IMG/VR virus record: IMGVR_UViG_3300045988_135160
Direction: 5' to 3' (one strand)
DNA: 64,000 nucleotides
DNA from: a virus
This document shows positions 1,375-44,509 of this stretch, piece after piece. The notes under the pieces are model-generated. The model saw nothing but the letters and a program-made list of their open reading frames with translations. It had not been told where the DNA came from and searched no databases. The position numbers were made by a program, and so were the translations under genes. Each line of letters starts with the position of its first letter. Within the stretch, counting starts at the first letter, position 1.

Positions 1375-4300
1375 CAATAATATAGATAGATATAATCCTG
1401 CTGCTAAAACCACTTACGAAGATGTGGCAAGGCAAAGGAAATTAGCCGAAGAAGAGAATTACACTCCGGCTACATTACCAGAGACGACAACACCTCTGGT
1501 TCCTAATTATATGCCTGGTGAAGGTGTGTATGCCCAACCTAAATTTCCGGATTACGCATCAAGGATAGCTGCTGCCGAATACGAAGAACCGTATATAGCC
1601 AAGGAGATAAGCAACAGCTACTCAGAGGCACTGGCTCGTAACAGCTACAGGGGGGCTACACCTGCCCCGCCGCCTCTTAATCCCTATGGACCGAAGGTAA
1701 GTATCCGTGAAAGTCATCAGATGGGTAATGATGGGGTATGGCGTACAAAATATTCTAACTATATTCCGGGTATAAACAATGAGGATTATTATGCCAGAAG
1801 ACAGAGCGGATGGAGTAAGTTTTGGAATGGTGTAGGCAAATTCGCTTTAAAGTCCGCATTGTACGGTGCGCAAGGAGTTGTGTCATTGCCTGACAAACTT
1901 ATCAATATGGCATCTGAGGGAAGTTACAAAGCTGCGTTAAACACTAACATGGATAAGTTTGTAGGTGATCTTGACCAGCAAATAGACATGCTTCTTCCCC
2001 ATTATTACAAGAAAGAGGTAGAAGATTATAATTTTGGTCAGAAGCTTTTTAAGGATACCGGTAATTTCTTGTGGAATGACGTCCTTGGTAATGGTATGTC
2101 TTTTACCGTAGGAGCCATGATATCAGCGTACATGACCGGAGGACTTGGAGTTGGATCATTGGGTAATATAGGCGCTAAATTAGGTGGAAGAATCGGAGCT
2201 AAGTTAGCAGCAAGGCAAGCTGCCAATAGGGGCATAGGAAGCCTTAAAAGCGTGTTTAACGACTATGTAAGAAAAGGAGTTGCTACCGGAAGAAATGTAG
2301 GGGAGGCGGCTAAGACCATGACGTTGTTGGCTACCAGTGCCGGATTCGAGTCATCGGTTGAAGCAAATTCTTTTATGAAGCAATCTGAGTCTGATTTCAA
2401 GGATTATTATCGTAAGATTTATGGTCGTGATCCCAATGCAGAGGAAATGGCTGTTTTTCGTAATTCTAATGCTGATGTAGGTAGTGCTATATTTGCCGCC
2501 AATATGGGTATCGTAGGATTATCTAACTGGCTTCTTTTTGGTAAGTATATAGGGTTAGGAGGCAAGGCTATACCAGGGTTGGAAAAGAGGCTCAACAAGC
2601 ATTTATTTGGATTAGGGACGGAAGTTGCGAAGCCGGGAGAGATGGCTATTAAAATAACCAATCCCAATATAGGACAGAAGATAGCAGGCAATGTTTTCAA
2701 TATCATGAAAAGACCGGTATCTGAAGGCTTATGGGAAGAAGGATCTCAAGGTGCTGTTCAGAATACGGCTGAGGAATATGTTAAGTCAAGATATGATAAT
2801 GTCGCCATGAACGGAGCCGTTGATGTTCTTGATGCTATTTCTGAAGGATTTAAAAAGCAATATACGTCTAAAGAAGGATGGACTGAAATAGGAATCGGTG
2901 CTATTATCGGTTCTTTGTTTGGTATGAGAGAAGGCTTCTTTGGGGTGAAAGAGTATAGTAATAGTCAGATCTTGCTGGAAAGGCAAGTGAATGAATATAA
3001 CAAAGCATCTTCTAATCTTAACACGGCGGCTTTGAATACGTTGAAAAAATCAATGAGTTTAGGGCCTCAAGTTCGTTCCGATGCCCAGTCTATGACTGGT
3101 AAGGAGCTTGATGATGCTATGTTTGAAAAGATGTCTATTGACAACCAAATGGGAACCTTAGAGGATTCGGCTGAAAATTTCCGGCAGATGATTGATATGA
3201 TGCCTATTTCGGAAATAGCCGAAGCTAATGGAATGTCTTTGGAAGAGGCAAAGAAATACAAGGACTCTATTATTGATAATTATAATAATCGTCTTTCGGA
3301 TTTCAGATCTGCCCAGAGTTTTGCCGAAGATCTTATAGGTGATGATTCTAAGATTGAGTTTAGGAAATACGTGGCTCGTAATGCTTTTCTTGGTCTTCAA
3401 TCGGAATCAAGAATGAAAGACATAGCTTCTGTCATAGAAACGCTTTCGGGGCAGCCTCGCGTGGCGGATGCTCTAAGTACGTTCTCCCGGCTGTCGGACA
3501 GGGCAAGGGAGCGGGCGATGGCTATCCGTGGCATACGGTCAAGAATAGAAGAACTTGAATCCGAAATAGAAGATCTTGCTACCCGCCCTCGCAACGTAGA
3601 AGGGAAAGATCCACAAGCTGAATCCATACAACGAAAAACCAAAGAATTGGAAAGCCTTAGAACCAATTATAACAATTCGTTGTCTGAGTTATCAACGTTA
3701 ATAGGAAAAGAGTTTTCGATAGAAGAGTTGGTAAGTAAAACCGAATCTGTTTTATCATCTCCTCTTTCTCCCATAAGTTCACAAGATGTAATAGAAGCCT
3801 ATGATACTCTTGTGGCTTTTGATGATTATTTTAATGTAAAATCAAGACAGGAAAAGAAGTTTACAGCCAAAGACAAAGCCATGAGATCCTTGGTAAATGA
3901 ATACCGTAGGAGTTTGATGGACTATAGGAATATGAATAATTTCTTGTCTAAGATGCTTGATAAAAGATTCTTAGCTGAGGAAAACAGGGGATTTTCAAAA
4001 GCGCTGTCTTCTCTATGGTCTACTCCTTATAAGGGGGATGACAAGGTTCCTGATTTTGCAGAGCCTAATAAAGTCGGTGAATATGACACTGATGAGGTAG
4101 TAGATCAAGCTGTGTCAGAAGGTAAGATTTCGGAAGACGAAGCTTGGACTATTAAAGCATTTATGCATGCTCTTGATAAAGTAAGAGAAGATAGGATGAA
4201 GGAAGCGGAAGATAATATAAAAGAGTCACCGCTTACGGAGTCTGTATCAGATGAAGATTATGAGGCTGCTATGGATAATCCTATTATGGTTCCGGTAGTA

Positions 4301-31142: not shown

Positions 31143-32843
31143 TTATTTTTTGTCATCTCCTTTTAGCTTCTTTAAAGTATCTGCAATCGGAAGCTGATCA
31201 ATGACTCCCAATGCCGGAGCGACGGTCTTAACAACATTGTTAAGGAAATTACCGGTACTGTTCTGACCGCCGTCAAATACCGTGATATTTCCGAGGTTAA
31301 TGTGCTCAAATGCCTTAACCTGTTCTCCGGCAATTTCTTTCCACTGATTAACCATCTTGTACTGGATGGCGATCTGAGGATTGGATTCTGCTGCTTCCAC
31401 CATAGCCTTAAATCCGTCGGCTTCTGCCATCAACGACTTTTTCTTACCTTCGGCTTCCGCTTCCAGCTTCATCTGAATAGCTTTTGCTTCCGCCTCTGCT
31501 TTTGCCAAATGTGCTGCTGCTTCAGCATCGGCCCGGCGTTTGATCTTCTCGGCCTCGGCATCAGCTTGCAACATAGCCTCCTGCTTCTGAATTTCAGCCG
31601 GCACAATCTTTTCAGCTTTAAGCGCAGCTTGAACCTTCTTAGCTTTAGCTTCTTCCACTTCTTTATCAGCAAGCTCTTTTGCCGTTTTCACAGCCGCTTC
31701 CGATTTAACTTTCTCTTCTCCGGCTTTCTTTTCTGATTGAGCTTTGATAACCTGCAATTCTGATTCTGATACAGCAACCTCTTTCTGGGCATTGTTGTAG
31801 CCTACAGAAGCATTTTTCTCAGCCTCAGCTTTCTTAATCTGAGCTTCAGAGTCTTGTATTGCTATAGCTGCTTGTTTGTCAGCTTCAGCTTTATTCTTTC
31901 CAACTTCTTCCATTCTTTCGGCTTCAGCTTTGTTTACTTCAAGTTCCGCCTTAGATCTTGCAATCGCTGATTCCTTGTCAGCCAAAGTCTTTGCTATAGC
32001 CGCAGCCCTATCTCTATCGGCTTGAGCTACACCGATCTGTTTTTCTTTATCGGTTAAAGCCAAAGCTACTTCTTTTTCTTTCTTTGTTTCAGCTACTACC
32101 GTTTCTTTTTCTTTTTCAGTATAGGCAATTTGAATCTCTTGCTCTTTTTGGGTATTAGCTACAGCCGTTTCTTTTTCCTTCTGTTGTACAGCAATCTTAA
32201 TAGCACCCAGCTTTTCCTGTTCTTCGATATTAGCCTGTGCTTCGTTCAGAGCCTTGCTTTCAGCCTCTTTACCAAGATTCATGATGTAGCCGGCTTCATC
32301 TCTGATGTCACTGATGTTAATGTTCAAAAGATAAAGACCCAATTTATTAAGTTCGTTATCAATGTTTTTTCTTGCCTTATCCAAAAACTCATCCCTATCA
32401 GAATTAAGTTTTTCGATTGTCATTTCGGCAATAATCAAACGCATCTGACCGTAAACGATGTCTGTAATAAGATTTTCAGTAGATTCGGTATCCATCCCCA
32501 AAAGTCTTTCTGCTGCATTTTGCATGATTTCAGGATTTGTACTGATAGCTACTGTAATAGTTGTAGGCACATCTACTCTAATATTCTGAGATGACAAAGC
32601 ACCGGTAAGCCTACAATCTATTTGCATAGGCTCCATAGACAAAACATCATAGCTTTGAATAATAGGCAAGACAAATGCCGCTCCACCATGATATAATTTT
32701 GCCGACTTCTTTTCCCCACCTGTCTTACCGTAAACGACCAAGACCTGATTAGGCTTACATCTACGATACCTTGATAAGACTCCGATGATTGTCAAAATAA
32801 TCACTACAGCTAAGATGGCTGACACGTACATAATTGTTGTCAT
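31143..32843 (-). CDS. flotillin-like SPFH (band-7) domain protein
   Basis: N-terminal TM helix, SPFH core (QVLVVYGK...GGAAFVLPIIQSYDVLSMEPMQID), then a long Glu/Ala/Lys-rich flotillin-repeat coiled coil. Same architecture as FloT/YuaG. Confidence 0.8.
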   Translation of the reverse strand: MTTIMYVSAILAVVIILTIIGVLSRYRRCKPNQVLVVYGKTGGEKKSAKLYHGGAAFVLPIIQSYDVLSMEPMQIDCRLTGALSSQNIRVDVPTTITVAISTNPEIMQNAAERLLGMDTESTENLITDIVYGQMRLIIAEMTIEKLNSDRDEFLDKARKNIDNELNKLGLYLLNINISDIRDEAGYIMNLGKEAESKALNEAQANIEEQEKLGAIKIAVQQKEKETAVANTQKEQEIQIAYTEKEKETVVAETKKEKEVALALTDKEKQIGVAQADRDRAAAIAKTLADKESAIARSKAELEVNKAEAERMEEVGKNKAEADKQAAIAIQDSEAQIKKAEAEKNASVGYNNAQKEVAVSESELQVIKAQSEKKAGEEKVKSEAAVKTAKELADKEVEEAKAKKVQAALKAEKIVPAEIQKQEAMLQADAEAEKIKRRADAEAAAHLAKAEAEAKAIQMKLEAEAEGKKKSLMAEADGFKAMVEAAESNPQIAIQYKMVNQWKEIAGEQVKAFEHINLGNITVFDGGQNSTGNFLNNVVKTVAPALGVIDQLPIADTLKKLKGDDKK

Positions 32844-32874: not shown

Positions 32875-33369
32875 TTAGATAATTAATTCTCCTTCTTCGT
32901 ATTTTATATTCACCTTGTCACCGTTTTTGTAAGTTTTTCCAGACAAGCATCTTACTCTCATTTGCTCCTGTCTTCCATTTTTCGAAATATTTACCATATA
33001 ATGATTCTTCCCTGATCTAAACACTATCTCCACCTCTCTGCCATTTAAATCTTCCGGACATTCGTACACCATTTCTTGCTTTAACTTAAGAAGTAACTTA
33101 TATACGTAAAACAAAACGATAAAGAAAAACGACCCTATCACAACCCCTACTAAATGGGAACCCGAAAAGTAGGTAGTCCAGCTATATCCAAGAATAAAAT
33201 GTGTTATGCCCTTGAATGATATGATGTCCGACAAAGACATACTTAAATCAGAAGCATCATCAATATCAATATCCGTATCCAGATCAGATCCTAATATCGA
33301 CAACAAAAACTGTATAACAAAAGCAAATGACGCTATTAAAGCCATGCATAAAATTATGTCACTTCCCAT
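32875..33369 (-). CDS. NfeD-like membrane protein (flotillin partner)
   Basis: 2-3 TM helices plus a C-terminal beta-rich soluble domain (GKTYKNGDKVNIKYEEGELII). Sits immediately upstream of the flotillin gene, as in the yuaF-floT pair. Confidence 0.5.
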   Translation of the reverse strand: MGSDIILCMALIASFAFVIQFLLSILGSDLDTDIDIDDASDLSMSLSDIISFKGITHFILGYSWTTYFSGSHLVGVVIGSFFFIVLFYVYKLLLKLKQEMVYECPEDLNGREVEIVFRSGKNHYMVNISKNGRQEQMRVRCLSGKTYKNGDKVNIKYEEGELII

Positions 33370-33610
33370 ATCCTTCTGTTATTATTTTGTAAACAAGATC
33401 AGTCATATCTTTGATGGTCTCCATATCATAATCATTAATAACAATATTGAATTTTTGTTCCACCATCACTTCCAGTTCAATTTGATCGATAGAATCTAAT
33501 CCAAGTTCTTTAAACGTCACATCTTCTTCATGAACTATATCTATTTCCGAATTAAGAAACTGAGTAATAATTATATCCTCTATTATCTTTCTGATTCTTA
33601 CTTTTTCCAT
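33359..33610 (-). CDS. acyl carrier protein-like (83 aa)
   Basis: LGLDSIDQIELEVMVEQKF matches the ACP phosphopantetheine-attachment DSL/helix-II signature. Overlaps both neighbours, suggesting translational coupling. Confidence 0.55.
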   Translation of the reverse strand: MEKVRIRKIIEDIIITQFLNSEIDIVHEEDVTFKELGLDSIDQIELEVMVEQKFNIVINDYDMETIKDMTDLVYKIITEGYGK

Positions 33611-35156: not shown

Positions 35157-36293
35157 TTAATACAATGACTGTTCTTCCTTTGTCTCTTGTTCTTGATCTT
35201 GATTGTTCGTAACGTCTTCCACAGTATAGAGCTTGGGCGGCGTCGGCGGCTGGTTGGGGTTCACGAACTTCGTCCCGCCCTCCCCGTACATCCATCCATG
35301 TCCCGGCAGTATCTCTGGGTGGATTGTATTAGTAAGCTCTTCCATACTAACTTGCCTTACCTTCAGTATATGATGAAATACCAGTCCGGCTGTCCTGAAT
35401 GATGTTTTGTTTTCAGTTTTAAACCTATCAAGGGTCTGATACCAGTCTTTCCCAAATATCATATACTTATCCAGCCCGTACCTACGAGGATTGTGCAAAC
35501 CTATCATTAACGTACATAACTGACCCAGCGTATCGGATTGGTAAAAATCAGAAAGACGCGGAGGCTGCTCTTGTGGGCTTTTTATCCTTCCTTCTATTTC
35601 TCTGTTGAATTGGGATATGATGAGGAAAAATATGTTTTTATATACTAATTTAGCTTCGTTCATAACCGCCACCAAATCATCTATAGCCGACTTAGGATCT
35701 AATCCCATTCTTTTTATCAAAGCAATATGATCGACTTTAAATATTATAAGACGTTTGTCTTTATGTTTGGTAGCTATATGATACACAGCCGCCTCAAACT
35801 CTTTTACCGTACACGGAGCATCGATGTATATTATATTATTCCTGATTTCACCTTGAAGGATTTCAAACATCCTCATCTCTTCTACTGTATTAGAATCTTG
35901 CCTTCTTAATATTTCAGGAGCTCGCATTTTCATATCCTGGCTCATTCTACGAAGAAGAAGATCTTGAGGATTCATTTCGAACTCGCAATTAACAAGAAAA
36001 TAATCTTCTGCTTGCGGGTTGATCATCGGATTCATAACATTTTCCAATATCTTTTGAGCCACATACGATTTACCTACAGATGGCCGGGCTCCTATGGCAA
36101 TAGCGTGCTGAGGAAAAATACCTCCAAGCAAAGCCTCATCAATATAATCGTATCCGGTTTTAGCGGGGATAAGCTCTCCCCGCCTGTATTTCAAGATATT
36201 CTCATACGCCTCTTCCATAACCTGTTTGGAGGTTTTGAAAATATTCCGGATGTTAACTTTTGTCGTTTTGTTATCGAATGTTCCAAACTCCAT
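35157..36293 (-). CDS. DnaB-like replicative helicase (RecA-fold C-terminal domain)
   Basis: GYDYIDEALLGGIFPQHAIAIGARPSVGKS is the DnaB Walker A/H1 region. Walker B-like LIIFKVDHI. Confidence 0.65.
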   Translation of the reverse strand: MEFGTFDNKTTKVNIRNIFKTSKQVMEEAYENILKYRRGELIPAKTGYDYIDEALLGGIFPQHAIAIGARPSVGKSYVAQKILENVMNPMINPQAEDYFLVNCEFEMNPQDLLLRRMSQDMKMRAPEILRRQDSNTVEEMRMFEILQGEIRNNIIYIDAPCTVKEFEAAVYHIATKHKDKRLIIFKVDHIALIKRMGLDPKSAIDDLVAVMNEAKLVYKNIFFLIISQFNREIEGRIKSPQEQPPRLSDFYQSDTLGQLCTLMIGLHNPRRYGLDKYMIFGKDWYQTLDRFKTENKTSFRTAGLVFHHILKVRQVSMEELTNTIHPEILPGHGWMYGEGGTKFVNPNQPPTPPKLYTVEDVTNNQDQEQETKEEQSLY

Positions 36294-36298
36294 TGTGA

Positions 36299-37558
36299 TT
36301 ATTCGTTATTATGTGTATTTGCTTTATATCCATATGATTGATCTACTTCAATAGAAGTCAATCCATGTCCTATATATTTTAATTTTTTATATGATATATT
36401 TTTCTCATTTTCCCCATCTATATCTTTTATTTTAAAACTACCAGAAAGTCTTCTTGCGTAAATAAATCGTTTTTCACCATAAAACATTACTTTATCAAAT
36501 AGTCTAAACCCAAATACCCTAAATGGTGATTGATTCATTCTTTTGATCCCTCCCTTTTGCATCTTCATTTTATGAATTTGCCTATTATGTCTCCGTGTGA
36601 GTTTCATCTTGAAATGATATCCAAGCCTTTTTGCTTTAAAATTCTCTGAGATAACAAATGCATCAGAAACATGGGACTTTTCGATTCTATGTTTTATCCG
36701 ATTATGTTTCGTTATATATCCAAATGTCATACTAACGTTTGGATATAATGACTTCAATTTATCGAATAACTTCCATTTCATGATTCCCATCGCGGCCGCA
36801 TCACGAAGTGAAGTTCCTCTTTTTACCTTCAATTTAATATTCCCCTTATGGTACTCCTTATGGCAAGTTTCACATAAAGTAATCAAATTAGAAGGTGAAT
36901 CTCCACCAGTCTTTCGCGATTCGATATGGTGGATATTAAGAATAGGATTTTTCGATTTTCCCTTACAATGCTGGCATTTGTGACCATCACGAAAAAGTAT
37001 GTATTCTCGAACATTCCAAAATCCAAGTTGCTCGCCTTGCTGGTATTCTTTTCCCAATATATCAGGATTCTTAATCTTTTGAGTATCAAACTGAGAAGTT
37101 TCTATAATTAATCTTGAAACAGGAAGGATAGAATGTATAAAACTGACAACCTTAATATGGGAATCAATTTTTTGACAAACAGATGGAGCTATCCATCCTT
37201 GGCGCTTCGACTTTATTCTGTTATTAAATCTCGGCTTTCTATACCTTATCCTATTCCTTCTCGCTTTCCTCAATTCTCTTCTTGTCGAAAGCAAATTAAT
37301 GATATCATTTCTCAGAATAACTTCACTTGCGTAAAGCTCCTTGCTTTTCGTCGTAGCTGATAGACCAACATGTTTAGTTCCAGCATCAACGCCTAACACA
37401 ATTTCCTGTTTGTAATCAGATGTGACGTACATTAATTTGATGGTAAACGGACATAAGTTGACAACAACTGCCTTTTTGTCTTTAAGCAGTCTTCTAACCT
37501 TACCATGCCTTGTTGTTGGCATCAAAGGTTTACCATCTATGTCTTGTACGTACACCAT
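36299..37558 (-). CDS. iscB: IscB RNA-guided nuclease (PLMP, split RuvC and HNH), copy 1
   Basis: N-terminal DGKPLMPTTRHGKVRRLLK (PLMP domain). RuvC-I LGVDAGTKHVGLSA. HNH CQHCKGKSKNPILNIHHIESRKTGGDSPSNLITLCETCHKEYH. RuvC-III SHVSDAFVI. Size of 419 aa is typical of IscB. Confidence 0.85.
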   Translation of the reverse strand: MVYVQDIDGKPLMPTTRHGKVRRLLKDKKAVVVNLCPFTIKLMYVTSDYKQEIVLGVDAGTKHVGLSATTKSKELYASEVILRNDIINLLSTRRELRKARRNRIRYRKPRFNNRIKSKRQGWIAPSVCQKIDSHIKVVSFIHSILPVSRLIIETSQFDTQKIKNPDILGKEYQQGEQLGFWNVREYILFRDGHKCQHCKGKSKNPILNIHHIESRKTGGDSPSNLITLCETCHKEYHKGNIKLKVKRGTSLRDAAAMGIMKWKLFDKLKSLYPNVSMTFGYITKHNRIKHRIEKSHVSDAFVISENFKAKRLGYHFKMKLTRRHNRQIHKMKMQKGGIKRMNQSPFRVFGFRLFDKVMFYGEKRFIYARRLSGSFKIKDIDGENEKNISYKKLKYIGHGLTSIEVDQSYGYKANTHNNE

Positions 37559-37810
37559 TTGTTACAAACTAATTTTTAATTAATAACTACTATTCGTAGT
37601 AAGTCAGATATATTTCAATCTGTTAGTACCCATCGCCAATGTTATTCAGAGGTTTCTTACAAGCAACACTGTATCCAAATACAAATACTGTTTAATCACC
37701 TGCCTTAGAGCCTGGAGCTTGGATAAACACTCCAGGGTAACTATACATTCTCCGATAACGTAGTGCTCGAAGCACTTAGGCTAATAACCGGCCAGTAAAA
37801 CTGGATATAC
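36377..37810 (-). mobile_element. non-autonomous IS200/IS605-like IscB element 1 (iscB plus upstream omega-RNA block; boundaries approximate)
   Basis: Similarity to copy 2 extends from about codon 394 (YKKLK) through the roughly 230-nt upstream conserved block, then stops. Confidence 0.45.
37559..37810 (-). ncRNA. putative IscB omega-RNA (guide at the 5' end, about 37791-37810)
   Basis: Non-coding block immediately 5' of iscB-1, conserved with the block 5' of iscB-2. Two hairpins show compensatory changes: CCTGGAG/CTCCAGG versus CTACGAA/TCCGTAG, and GTGCT/AGCAC versus GTGTT/AACAC. Confidence 0.55.
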
Positions 37811-37843
37811 AAAAAAGTAAAATTCTATTTGTCTTTTTGTATA

Positions 37844-38119
37844 TTATTTCGGAGATCTTGCATTTTTGTCACCTTTCGTATCCGACTTGGATCCCCTATT
37901 AGCTTTTACTGATTTATACCTAAGACCGTTCTTGGTATGAGAACAATCCTTGCCTTTCCTCCAGCCCTTGCCCTTCTTCTTGTCCGTTTCGTAGTTTTTA
38001 CGACCAAGCTCCCGGCGTTTGGCTTTCTGTTCCGGTCTGGCATTTATCTCCTTGTCCTTTTTAGCCTTTTTCTTCCTGGCTTCTGGATGAGTCCTGTAGT
38101 ACTCTGTTGATCTGCCCAT
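37844..38119 (-). CDS. highly basic Lys/Arg-rich small protein (91 aa)
   Basis: ORF with more than 35 percent K+R. Confidence 0.4.
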   Translation of the reverse strand: MGRSTEYYRTHPEARKKKAKKDKEINARPEQKAKRRELGRKNYETDKKKGKGWRKGKDCSHTKNGLRYKSVKANRGSKSDTKGDKNARSPK

Positions 38120-38171: not shown

Positions 38172-38738
38172 CTATTTCAACCTGCCGTAGCTCATATCAG
38201 GATCACACCAGACATACCCATCTTTCTCATCATGGAGATACTCAGGACATCCTCTACATGCGCTACTTCCTGACACTATTTGATTGTTCTTATTAGGGCA
38301 CTTATCTCCAGGCTTATGCCATTCTATTCTCGAACCTGATCGTTCTTTGTTTACATGACAGAACTGAAAGATTTTTCCCATCGTCTTCTCGCCGAACATA
38401 CCTATATGTGTGTATTCTTCCGGTATAGAGAGAAATCCAGATAAATCTTTATACATCCTTTTCCGTTCCTCCGGCGTAGACCATAGTCTGTCAAGTTCGG
38501 CATGGACTCTTATCTTAAGAGATCTCAGTGATGGCCCCGCAAGCCGGCCTTTAGCTTTTCCCTTATTCGGCCCTGATTCATGAACACCGACATAAGCGTT
38601 GCATGGTTTGCACATCATAACCATACCTAAGCCTTTTCTGCTATATATTTTATCGGCATTGACCAGCTCGGTTTCCCTTCCGCAATAAGGACAAATTTCG
38701 CCTCTTAAAACCCGTTGTTGGCGCTCATTAAGTTCCAT
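38172..38738 (-). CDS. zinc-finger protein (188 aa)
   Basis: CPYCG, CKPC and CRGC Cys pairs. Confidence 0.5.
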   Translation of the reverse strand: MELNERQQRVLRGEICPYCGRETELVNADKIYSRKGLGMVMMCKPCNAYVGVHESGPNKGKAKGRLAGPSLRSLKIRVHAELDRLWSTPEERKRMYKDLSGFLSIPEEYTHIGMFGEKTMGKIFQFCHVNKERSGSRIEWHKPGDKCPNKNNQIVSGSSACRGCPEYLHDEKDGYVWCDPDMSYGRLK

Positions 38739-42340: not shown

Positions 42341-42827
42341 TCTTCTTCTCGCCTAATTTTTCAGCTCCCTTCTGAAGATCATATTTGAATACGTCAATGA
42401 TCTTCGTTTCAGCAATAGCTTCGCAATTCCAGTCGCCTAACGTGCCCTGCATGCCTTTAGTCAACACAGCTTCGGCATCCTTGGGATTGCCGGCCTGGAC
42501 ATACATATAGCATGGTGTTTTCTTTTCTTTACCTTTCTTTTCATCCAGTGTAATGTAATTCACCTTACACTTATACCAGTACTCAGCTTCTCCGTTGAAG
42601 AAGATTTCCGACACTTTAATAGGATTTATTTTAACAATGTCGAACACTTGAAATAAATCCTTGAAAATCTCTAAAGATCTTGATTCTGCCTCTGTATAAG
42701 ATAAGGCATCTACCAAATACTTTTCAGTTACCTTCTTTTTTTTGCCGTTCTCGATATTATCAATCTCGGCTTTTACTGTGATTTCAAACCAACGATTCAT
42801 GTCTATATTTTTATTCAAATTAATCAA
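42330..42827 (-). CDS. hypothetical protein (165 aa)
   Basis: ORF. Its start overlaps the iscB-2 stop. Confidence 0.45.
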   Translation of the reverse strand: MINLNKNIDMNRWFEITVKAEIDNIENGKKKKVTEKYLVDALSYTEAESRSLEIFKDLFQVFDIVKINPIKVSEIFFNGEAEYWYKCKVNYITLDEKKGKEKKTPCYMYVQAGNPKDAEAVLTKGMQGTLGDWNCEAIAETKIIDVFKYDLQKGAEKLGEKKSEE

Positions 42828-44050
42828 TCCATTTCCTTTTGTACCATAAAGCGTTTACACCTTGATAATTTCAATTTCTTGTATGTAATATCTCTTTGGT
42901 TTTTACCATCAATATCTCGAATATTAAAACTACCGGTTTTACGCCTTGCGAATATAAAATAATAACTGTTTTCAAACATAACCCTATCAAACAATCGGAA
43001 ACCAAAAACTTCAAAAGGAGATTGATTTGGTCTTTTTATCCCTCCTTTTGGAATCTTTTGTTTATGGATCTGACGATTATGTCTTCTTACTAATCTTACT
43101 TTATAATAATATCCTAACCTTATAGCATCAAAGTTTTTAGAAATAACAAATGCATCGAAAACATGAGATTTTTCAATACCATGTTTAATCCTATTGTATT
43201 TTGTAACATAACCGAAAGTCATAGAAACTCTGTTGTATTTAGACCTTAGTTCTTCATACAATCTCCATTTCATTATTCCCATTACGGCTGCGTCGCGAAG
43301 CGACGATCCCCGTTTGATCTTTAAATCTATATTACCTTTATGGTATTCTTTATGACAAGTTTCACATAAGGTAATAAGATTAGATGGGGAATCTCCACCT
43401 GTCTTTCGTGATTCAATATGATGAACATTCAATACTGGGTCTTTTGACTTTCCCTTACAATGCTGGCATTTATGTCCATCTCTTGCTAAAACATATTCCC
43501 TAACGTTCCAAAATCCAAGTTGATCACCCTCCTGATATTCTTTACCTGATATATTAGGATTGTTAATCTTTTGAGTATCAAATTGAGCTACTTCGATAAC
43601 AATACGAGATATTGGTAATATAGAACATACATTGTCAATAACACGAATATGGGCGTCTACTTTGTATTTCACCGAAGGTGCTACCCATCCCGGACGCTTA
43701 CTTTTTATTCTATTATCAAAACGAGGTTTTCTATATCTCAATCTATTTCGTCTTGATCTTCGTAGCTCCCTTCTGGTAGACAAAAGATCTACGATATCAT
43801 TTCTAAGGATAACTTCACTGCTGTAAAGTTCTTTGCTTTTCGTTGTAGCCGATAGACCAACATGTTTAGTACCAGCATCAACGCCTAACACAATTTCTTG
43901 TTTGTAATCAGATGTTACGTACATTAATTTGATGGTAAACGGACATAGGTTTACAACGATTGCCTTTTTGTCTTTAAGCAGTCTCCTAACCTTACCATGC
44001 CTTGTTGTAGGCATCATAGGTTTACCATTTATGTCTTGTACGTACACCAT
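42824..44050 (-). CDS. iscB: IscB RNA-guided nuclease, copy 2 (about 80 percent identical to copy 1)
   Basis: Same PLMP, RuvC and HNH motifs (MVYVQDINGKPMMPTTRHGKVRRLLK; CQHCKGKSKDPVLNVHHIESRKTGGDSPSNLITLCETCHKEYH). C-terminus diverges from copy 1 after YKKLK. Confidence 0.85.
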   Translation of the reverse strand: MVYVQDINGKPMMPTTRHGKVRRLLKDKKAIVVNLCPFTIKLMYVTSDYKQEIVLGVDAGTKHVGLSATTKSKELYSSEVILRNDIVDLLSTRRELRRSRRNRLRYRKPRFDNRIKSKRPGWVAPSVKYKVDAHIRVIDNVCSILPISRIVIEVAQFDTQKINNPNISGKEYQEGDQLGFWNVREYVLARDGHKCQHCKGKSKDPVLNVHHIESRKTGGDSPSNLITLCETCHKEYHKGNIDLKIKRGSSLRDAAVMGIMKWRLYEELRSKYNRVSMTFGYVTKYNRIKHGIEKSHVFDAFVISKNFDAIRLGYYYKVRLVRRHNRQIHKQKIPKGGIKRPNQSPFEVFGFRLFDRVMFENSYYFIFARRKTGSFNIRDIDGKNQRDITYKKLKLSRCKRFMVQKEMD

Positions 44051-44300
44051 ATCTACAAACGTTTTTAATGTTTATTCAACATAAGTCAGAGTGAAACTCT
44101 GTTAGTACCCATCGCCAATGTTATTTAAGGTTTTTTTTGTAAGCAACACTGTTCCTGAATACCAGAACTGTTTAATCACTTACCTTAGAGCTACGAACTT
44201 GGGCAAACATCCGTAGGTAACTATCTATTCTTAAATAACGTAGTGTTTGTTTCAACACTTAGGCTAATAATCGGAATAGCTTTTGGCTATTATGCATAAT
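42869..44300 (-). mobile_element. non-autonomous IS200/IS605-like IscB element 2 (boundaries approximate)
   Basis: Extent of nucleotide and protein similarity to element 1. Confidence 0.45.
44051..44300 (-). ncRNA. putative IscB omega-RNA, copy 2 (guide about 44281-44300)
   Basis: Conserved with 37559-37810. Compensatory stem changes support a structured RNA. Confidence 0.55.
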
Positions 44301-44509
44301 ACAATACAAATTGTTTATGATTTGTATGGGTTATGCATTATTCTCGATTATTTACTATCGTGGCCACGAAATACTTACACCCCTCTAAGTGCGTCAGGGC
44401 TTCAATCATAGCTTCTTTTATCTCTTTTTCTTCCATTCTGTTTGTTTTTTTGGACAAAGATATGCCTTTTGATAATAAAAAAGATTCAAAATGATTTAAT
44501 TTAGCTTAA

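Follow-up and report, generated by a model that had tools for sequence, protein, structure and literature searches.

The 64,000-nucleotide (nt) stretch of viral DNA analyzed here (IMG/VR record IMGVR_UViG_3300045988_135160, hereafter the window) carries on its minus strand two IscB elements, copies 1 and 2. Comparison with related phage loci indicates that copy 1 (positions 36294-37856) is, with a probability of roughly 0.7, a complete and probably active transposase-less OMEGA element of the IS200/IS605 (ISC) kind that homes between phages. Its host is a roughly 150-kb human-gut phage; the nearest GenBank phage, csAssE-Sib (OR575929; 151 kb, likewise from the human gut), is 93-95% identical over the window region and is without both iscB insertions.

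The distribution of copy 1 over diverged phage backgrounds is the main evidence for homing. Together with 55 nt of 3' flank, copy 1 (1563 nt) has 0-5 mismatches with four IMG/VR contigs and one ENA contig (99.7-100% identity), while the adjoining 0.7-1.2 kb on either side is 95.4-98.3% identical in the same five backgrounds. In the independent ENA contig, UMEG01007062.1, the element has 0 mismatches over 1563 nt and its flanks have 21 over 658 nt and 47 over 1180 nt. The identical tract around copy 1 extends from 29 nt 5' of the element to approximately 65-80 nt 3' of it. An identical copy 1 in diverged backgrounds is what one would expect if the element had recently been copied horizontally (homing), with co-conversion of a short tract. 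Homing or parasitism had been among the roles proposed in a preliminary description of this locus, and the near-identity of the element across backgrounds that are 2-5% apart supports that reading. The conserved 3' flank includes a variant dnaB 5' end (36239-36290, minus strand; MEFGTFDNKTTKVN...) that is 100% identical while adjoining DNA is 95-98% identical; it occurs in the window, in four IMG/VR contigs and in one ENA metagenome contig, each with the element, and apparently travels with it as co-converted flank. No element-free allele with the window-type dnaB 5' end was found, all five matches (four in IMG/VR and one in the JGI/ENA metagenomes) carrying the element. At the copy-1 site there are 79 element-free and about 8 filled loci, the flanks of all being ~97-98% identical to the window, and presence or absence of the element is interleaved with backbone similarity. 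One relative (L082) has copy 1 and lacks copy 2, and another (L154) has flanks 99.5% identical to those of the window, yet lacks copy 2.

In these respects copy 1 is like the free-standing homing endonucleases of T-even phages (Seg and Mob; intronless homing), which are likewise encoded by small nuclease genes between conserved genes, are present or absent in relatives, and are identical across diverged backgrounds with a short co-converted flank (for the concept see PMC13565253). In contrast to Seg and Mob, recognition by copy 1 would be by guide RNA rather than by protein, and self-protection, which Seg and Mob achieve via target substitutions, would be achieved by separating the protospacer from its adjacent motif. 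In the mechanism that we propose, the omega-RNA would come from read-through transcripts of the upstream gene and its first 16 nt (37872-37857), which are phage flank, would act as the guide. IscB with this RNA would then cut element-free phage genomes, where the flank joins an ATG-type motif directly, and repair of the break would use an element-bearing genome, co-infecting or sister, as its template, so that the element is copied in. The element's own copy would be spared because it begins AT(C/T/A) rather than ATG; an own junction that reads ATC, ATT or ATA, and never ATG, would shield it from its own nuclease.

The IscB protein of copy 1 and its omega-RNA

As judged from profiles and motifs, copy 1 is an intact IscB gene with its guide RNA; since IscBs and their omega-RNAs are well characterized, this identification is in itself routine. 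The iscB coding sequence (36299-37558, minus strand) encodes a 419-residue protein that the preliminary description had assigned an IscB architecture, and searches of Pfam and the PDB bear this out. The RRXRR profile (PF14239) matches at 2.1e-58 over its entire length (model positions 1-174 of 174) and an HNH profile matches residues 195-238 at 9.5e-09; the top PDB sequence matches are IscB chains (2e-41 to 2e-43), e.g. OgeuIscB (7UTN, 7XHT) at 2e-41. The order of domains is PLMP, RuvC-I (D58), an arginine-rich bridge helix, RuvC-II (E153), HNH, RuvC-III (H296/D299) and a C-terminal region, the motifs being PLMP (residues 11-14), GVD58AG, E153, CQHC (195-198), HH (210-211), N224, CETCH (229-233) and SHVSD299AF. 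OgeuIscB has the same domain order and aligned catalytic residues, with D58 (GVDAG), E153 and H296/D299 lining up with its GIDPG, LELNRF and DHYLDAY motifs; it is, however, longer (496 compared with 419 residues). The alignment to solved IscB structures spans residues 2-334 of 419, short of where a C-terminal domain that interacts with the target-adjacent motif would lie, and the C-terminal tails vary among subfamilies of the phage IscB homologs. Of these homologs, 81 of 82 are full length (406-419 residues) with all catalytic motifs intact, and pairwise ratios of nonsynonymous to synonymous substitution rates (dN/dS) of 0.05-0.10 reveal purifying selection on iscB. A protein-guided HNH homing endonuclease would bring DNA-binding modules of its own and have neither RuvC nor a guide RNA; copy 1 has both RRXRR/RuvC and an omega-RNA.

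The preliminary description also placed the iscB stop codon 5 nt from the start of a DnaB-like helicase gene, inside a phage replication module. Both points hold: the 5 nt are TCACA, the dnaB ATG begins at 36293, and the neighboring 378-residue open reading frame (ORF) matches Pfam DnaB_C at 1.2e-17. The annotation of csAssE-Sib gives a replication module at this place, with a DnaB-like helicase, a primase/helicase and a replication factor, and copy 1 lies on the same strand as the replication genes.

The conserved block 5' of iscB, proposed earlier to encode an omega-RNA, was confirmed as such in both copies by the covariance model for HEARO RNAs (Rfam RF02033, gathering score 83 bits), which matches copy 1 at 37622-37847 (minus strand) with 100.9 bits (E 1.4e-19) and copy 2 at 44101-44293 (minus strand) with 113.1 bits, in each case over the full model (1-211). 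The 15 further loci compared, from phages and bacteria, likewise all have a match above the threshold 5' of iscB, and in the consensus fold of 12 phage omega-RNAs 32 of 74 pairs have compensatory changes on both sides; the block is thus conserved in structure as well as in sequence. The extent given for it earlier was right in part. The 285-nt gap (37559-37843) can indeed be aligned to the upstream region of the second iscB, the two being almost continuously identical between about 37790 and the ATG, but the block begins further 5', at 37856, in the last codons of an upstream 91-residue ORF. The omega-RNA scaffold, together with the omega-RNA-side or right end (RE) of the element, is assigned to 37559-37856 (minus strand, starting ATCTCCGAAATAAT) on the basis of the HEARO match, the consensus fold and the DNA fold. 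It comprises hairpin 1 (37805-37844), hairpin 2 (37792-37804), the HEARO core and two more 3' hairpins ahead of the iscB ATG. When folded as DNA, 37775-37858 gives a z-score of -3.5, the omega-RNA ends of the two copies (z = -3.5 and -5.2) both having strong hairpins. As in OgeuIscB-type systems, an omega-RNA of the HEARO type, ~300 nt long, is encoded on the iscB strand right ahead of the gene and has its guide at the 5' end; that of copy 1 differs from the OgeuIscB omega-RNA in that its first HEARO stem holds two additional hairpins. Copy 1 matches the IscB/HEARO family and the ISC branch in its protein, its RNA and its layout, and it is an already known kind of element; the one defining feature found wanting is a transposase, which most iscB elements do not have either. 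Pairing of the first 10 nt of the element with the scaffold was also considered; a match of 7 nt noticed on inspection of copy 1 has no counterpart in copy 2 and was attributed to chance.

Element ends, predicted guide and insertion sites

The extent of copy 1 follows from 5'-end homology to other subfamilies and from the breakpoint with csAssE-Sib, homology to which stops at 37856. Comparison of filled and empty sites fixes the junctions of other family members, and the boundary of copy 1 was set by homology to these; its own junction rests on that homology, no matching empty allele having been sampled. Element ends were read from single subfamilies present in many flanks and junctions from element-free alleles in other fetched phage loci. 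All members of the family begin AT(T/A/C)..CTC..AATAAT, 8-9 nt 5' of the first position of the Rfam model. At its 5' end copy 1 supplies the final four codons of the upstream 91-residue ORF together with the stop codon (TAA at 37844-37846), and at its 3' or left end (LE) the 5 nt that follow the iscB stop codon and complete the element (36294-36298, minus strand) read TCACA, related subfamilies ending ..TCACA/ATG or ..ATAGAC/ATG. The AATAAT at the Rfam model start was rejected as the boundary, since family members in differing contexts share 8-9 nt more on the 5' side. We likewise rejected the idea that the element first inserted at the dnaB ATG found in empty alleles (ACAAAA^ATGCAAG); the element would then start with ATG and be its own target, and it would exceed its relatives by 7 nt.

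In IscB elements, the guide is the flank beside the omega-RNA end and a short motif flanks the other end, the two being contiguous in the element-free site (Meers et al., PMC10055086). For copy 1, the predicted guide is GTGACAAAAATGCAAG (37857-37872, minus strand), 16 nt of phage flank at the 3' end of the 91-residue ORF, immediately 5' of the boundary, and the motif similar to a target-adjacent motif (TAM) is, by comparison of 3' junctions, the ATG directly 3' of the element (36291-36293, minus strand), which here is also the start codon of dnaB. The preliminary description had looked for the guide at about 37791-37810, which has to be revised: this segment is a scaffold hairpin (CCAGttttaCTGG plus the end of a larger hairpin), i.e. 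the second of the two inserted in the first HEARO stem, the sequence of which varies between the copies with pairing kept, and the predicted guide lies ~50 nt further 5', at 37872-37857.

Insertion by this family follows a simple rule. In iscB orientation, with ^ as the insertion point, the element-free alleles are GATAGGTA^ATGGCTAAG (context L058), AATGAAC^ATGTTCGG (L077), GCTGATG^ATGAGG (L051) and GAAAGACG^ATGTGG (L057), i.e. insertion at [flank]^ATG is scarless and without target duplication, exactly so in L051, L058 and L077 and with a difference of 2 nt in L057. In the element-free alleles of all four contexts the guide-equivalent flank runs directly into ATG. AT is the start of the element and of the ATG alike, which leaves a 2-nt ambiguity in the placement of the junction throughout the family, copy 1 included. 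The 3' junction is ATG in 10 of 10 examined cases, and 8 of these 10 ATGs open same-strand ORFs of 95-567 residues. The family thus inserts just 5' of ATG, mostly at start codons, and for this reason copy 1 is wedged against dnaB and copy 2 against a DUF4494 gene. The position beside dnaB reflects a family-wide insertion habit and is no indication of a link to replication; in a densely coding phage, probably only insertions right ahead of start codons are tolerated. The inferred adjacent motif, ATG, differs from the NWRRNA reported for OgeuIscB (PMC12660989).

Phage tRNA genes also occur beside several of the family's insertion sites in related phages (L057, 5263-5336; L024, 3427-3500; L051, 5830-5902), and in L057 and L072 the element end lies 10-15 nt ahead of a tRNA.

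Phage lineage, the copy-1 target and competing explanations

A scan of IMG/VR yielded 179 tblastn-confirmed stretches coding for relatives of the copy-1 protein distributed over 14 or more flank contexts; identity is 75-100% in the 80 loci retained, nearly all of which lie on gut phage contigs of ~80-160 kb, several of these contigs holding two iscB copies. By comparison, no cellular relative in 185,579 bacterial and archaeal species genomes exceeds 63% identity, and IscB homologs in 30 GenBank phage records, labeled 'HNH endonuclease' or hypothetical, are at most 52% identical. Copies 1 and 2 and their relatives therefore constitute a phage-resident IscB lineage. Phage IscB/HEARO loci as such are not new, IscB homologs being present in Clostridium phage c-st, Ralstonia phages and Staphylococcus Silviavirus phages, with HEARO already reported in Silviavirus genomes (PMC13346280); however, those IscBs are at most 52% identical to copy 1, and neither an insertion rule nor spread has been described for them. 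A literature search for IscB homing in phages found no report in the library covered, and a 2026 review treats non-restorative homing by OMEGA systems as theoretical for phages (PMC13565253).

Several results weigh against homing of copy 1. The copy-1 protospacer is present in 110 element-free loci (67 perfect, 43 with one mismatch), but it is followed by AGG in 110 of 110 and by ATG in none. Nor is copy 1 a plain insertion when compared with the empty alleles: in every sampled empty allele the DnaB start has 32 nt (MQEEIANRIDIRR...) in place of which genomes with copy 1 have 49 different nt (MEFGTFDNKTTKVNIRN...); the 79 element-free loci carry this other 32-nt sequence at the copy-1 3' flank, and a search of 200 loci revealed no source for the variant 49-nt block of dnaB. 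The exact 17-mer of guide and ATG occurs in IMG/VR in three unrelated contigs only, approximately the number expected by chance. A scan for sigma-70 promoters and terminators gave sites no more numerous than in shuffled sequence. A tblastn search of limited sensitivity gave no match to Y1 (HUH) TnpA, either in the window or in the 4 kb around each of 82 iscB loci. The LE side of copies 1 and 2 has no detected hairpin (z = -1.4 and +1.4), although subfamilies L005 and L024 do have one after the stop codon. With neither a cognate Y1 transposase nor an LE hairpin detected, homing does not account for the colonization of new sites. Finally, general phage recombination could have carried the element between backgrounds by an alternative route. 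With respect to AGG, it may be that susceptible alleles have all been converted or were unsampled, that another motif is accepted, or that copy 1 spread by ordinary recombination.

The three unrelated contigs with the 17-mer are viral contigs of 20-38 kb in IMG/VR (L256, L257, L258), in which all 16 nt of the copy-1 guide stand before ATGG within coding sequence of another kind. The empty loci have two alleles right after the copy-1 protospacer, GAGATAGCAAATAGG and GATCTGAAAAATAAA, which differ at 7 of 15 positions in surroundings that are ~98% identical; this allele site (e.g. L086-L201, homologous to window 36239-36300) is a local hotspot at the predicted cleavage/TAM side.

The strongest competing explanation, which we nevertheless regard as unlikely, is that copy 1 is a non-autonomous IS200/IS605 transposon moved by a Y1 TnpA encoded in an unseen part of the phage or in the host, with IscB acting in restoration only and not in transfer between phages. 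The scarless insertions beside a fixed motif in four contexts are the signature of TnpA peel-and-paste transposition, and the strong hairpins at the omega-RNA end would suit such a transposase. Lack of an adjacent tnpA is also usual: only ~1.5% of iscB genes have tnpA nearby, ~98.5% being without (Meers et al., PMC10055086); two of 32 bacterial relatives (Syntrophomonas) do have tnpA directly downstream of iscB, and approximately 20 IMG/VR contigs of the phage group carry Y1 TnpA genes, three of them also with iscB. Against this explanation, none of these contigs carries copy 1, and the sole TnpA found in these phages is IS608-like, with a TTAC target and unrelated ends. Moreover, restorative homing alone cannot give an identical element in backgrounds 2-5% apart, and excision could not reverse insertions of the replacement type, of which copy 2 is one, although diverged backgrounds do contain them. 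The IS200/IS605 iscB elements of Geobacillus stearothermophilus (PMC10055086) are among the closest known systems. There too the omega-RNA abuts one end, the guide is taken from the flank, and most copies are without tnpA. Those elements are, however, chromosomal with the reported motif TTCAT, whereas the present ones are phage-borne with an inferred ATG motif, lie mostly exactly at same-strand gene starts and have no known cognate TnpA, and the phage population data suggest copying between genomes, beyond restoration after excision.

Domestication of the nuclease is very improbable, whether as a weapon against the host or against rival phages, a role that the preliminary description also listed, or as a repressor guided by RNA in the vicinity of dnaB. 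The strong purifying selection and the phage-specific clade (best cellular relatives at most 63% identical) speak in its favor, and since the guide matches element-free related phages, cleavage without repair would exclude competitors, a use known for classical homing endonucleases (PMC13565253). A fixed beneficial function would not, however, be expected to be as rare as 79 element-free compared with about 8 filled loci imply, and the same family occurs in at least 14 unrelated contexts. The intact nuclease residues argue against a repressor of the TldR type, and the guide is merely the neighboring flank, as in any IS605-type element. That copy 1 is a relic, decaying or no longer active, or else simply an HNH homing endonuclease guided by protein, as the GenBank labels ('HNH endonuclease' or hypothetical) and the failure to find an ATG-flanked cleavable target for copy 1 might suggest, has next to no probability, in view of the full RRXRR/RuvC/HNH protein with all catalytic residues and a dN/dS of 0.05-0.10, the omega-RNA above the Rfam threshold with covariation, and the identical element across backgrounds, which implies recent activity.

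Homing of copy 1 between phages thus remains our preferred interpretation. A bolder extension, which we put forward only tentatively and hold to be possible but doubtful, is that a transposase-independent phage IscB lineage spreads as an RNA-guided gene drive that uses an ATG motif and lands harmlessly between genes, and that at the copy-1 site it has converted every susceptible allele, with only resistant AGG alleles left. If true, the copy-1 locus would be the first evidence from natural populations of the non-restorative OMEGA homing that has been theoretical for phages (PMC13565253). The value of the system lies in its setting, namely a phage-only clade of at least 179 IscB genes in large gut phages with a simple insertion rule 5' of ATG; the copy-1 locus bears the population signature expected of homing, and because natural donor and recipient alleles are known, the proposal is directly testable. 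Were homing to be confirmed, it would be an unrecognized driver of mosaicism in gut phage genomes, and the lineage would be a source of compact (~410 residues) nucleases with a very short adjacent motif.

Copy 2 and neighboring features

The second IscB element (42801-44351, minus strand) consists of a scaffold (44051-44351), an iscB gene (42824-44050, 408 residues) and a 23-nt tail. Its protein is 75% identical to that of copy 1, matching RRXRR at 3e-60 over the whole model and HNH at about 1e-8. The ATG 3' of copy 2 (42798-42800, minus strand) is the start of the DUF4494 gene. The predicted guide, GTGGCCACGATAGTAA (44352-44367, minus strand), has matches in element-free relatives: the 16-mer has 23 close matches (0-2 mismatches), followed by ATG in 19 of 23 and by ACG in the other 4. 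On the 3' side, about 200 nt present in 23 element-free relatives are absent beside copy 2; they code for the C-terminal two thirds of an 86-residue ORF of csAssE-Sib. Similar changes were observed in 3 of 8 contexts (copy 2, L072 and the L024 group), in which element-carrying genomes have lost, or have other sequence in place of, the DNA between the insertion ATG and another ATG located 58-200 nt further downstream. This flank replacement may have arisen by recombination after two insertions close to each other, or by co-conversion of a donor-type flank. The divergence of copy 2 roughly tracks that of its flanks, and copy 2 looks like an older insertion.

The IS608-like element mentioned above is 1650 bp long and was found in three contigs (L119, at 2360-4009, and also L128 and L177). 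It is a tnpA-tnpB element that encodes TnpA (132 residues; Y1_Tnp 1e-38) and a divergently oriented TnpB (379 residues; OrfB_IS605 and TNB domains, Pfam). It is inserted after TTAC, ends ..TCAA, and lies at the equivalent of window position 38354/38355, where it truncates a DUF3268 zinc-finger gene that is intact in the window (38172-38738). Its TnpA was considered as a mobilizer of the iscB elements and rejected, its target and ends being unlike theirs. The replication module of these phages therefore houses an OMEGA element of a second kind as well.

Just downstream of the replication genes, the window encodes a 566-residue flotillin-like protein (31143-32843) and an 83-residue acyl-carrier-protein-like ORF (33359-33610). 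Both are so annotated in csAssE-Sib and are unusual phage cargo.

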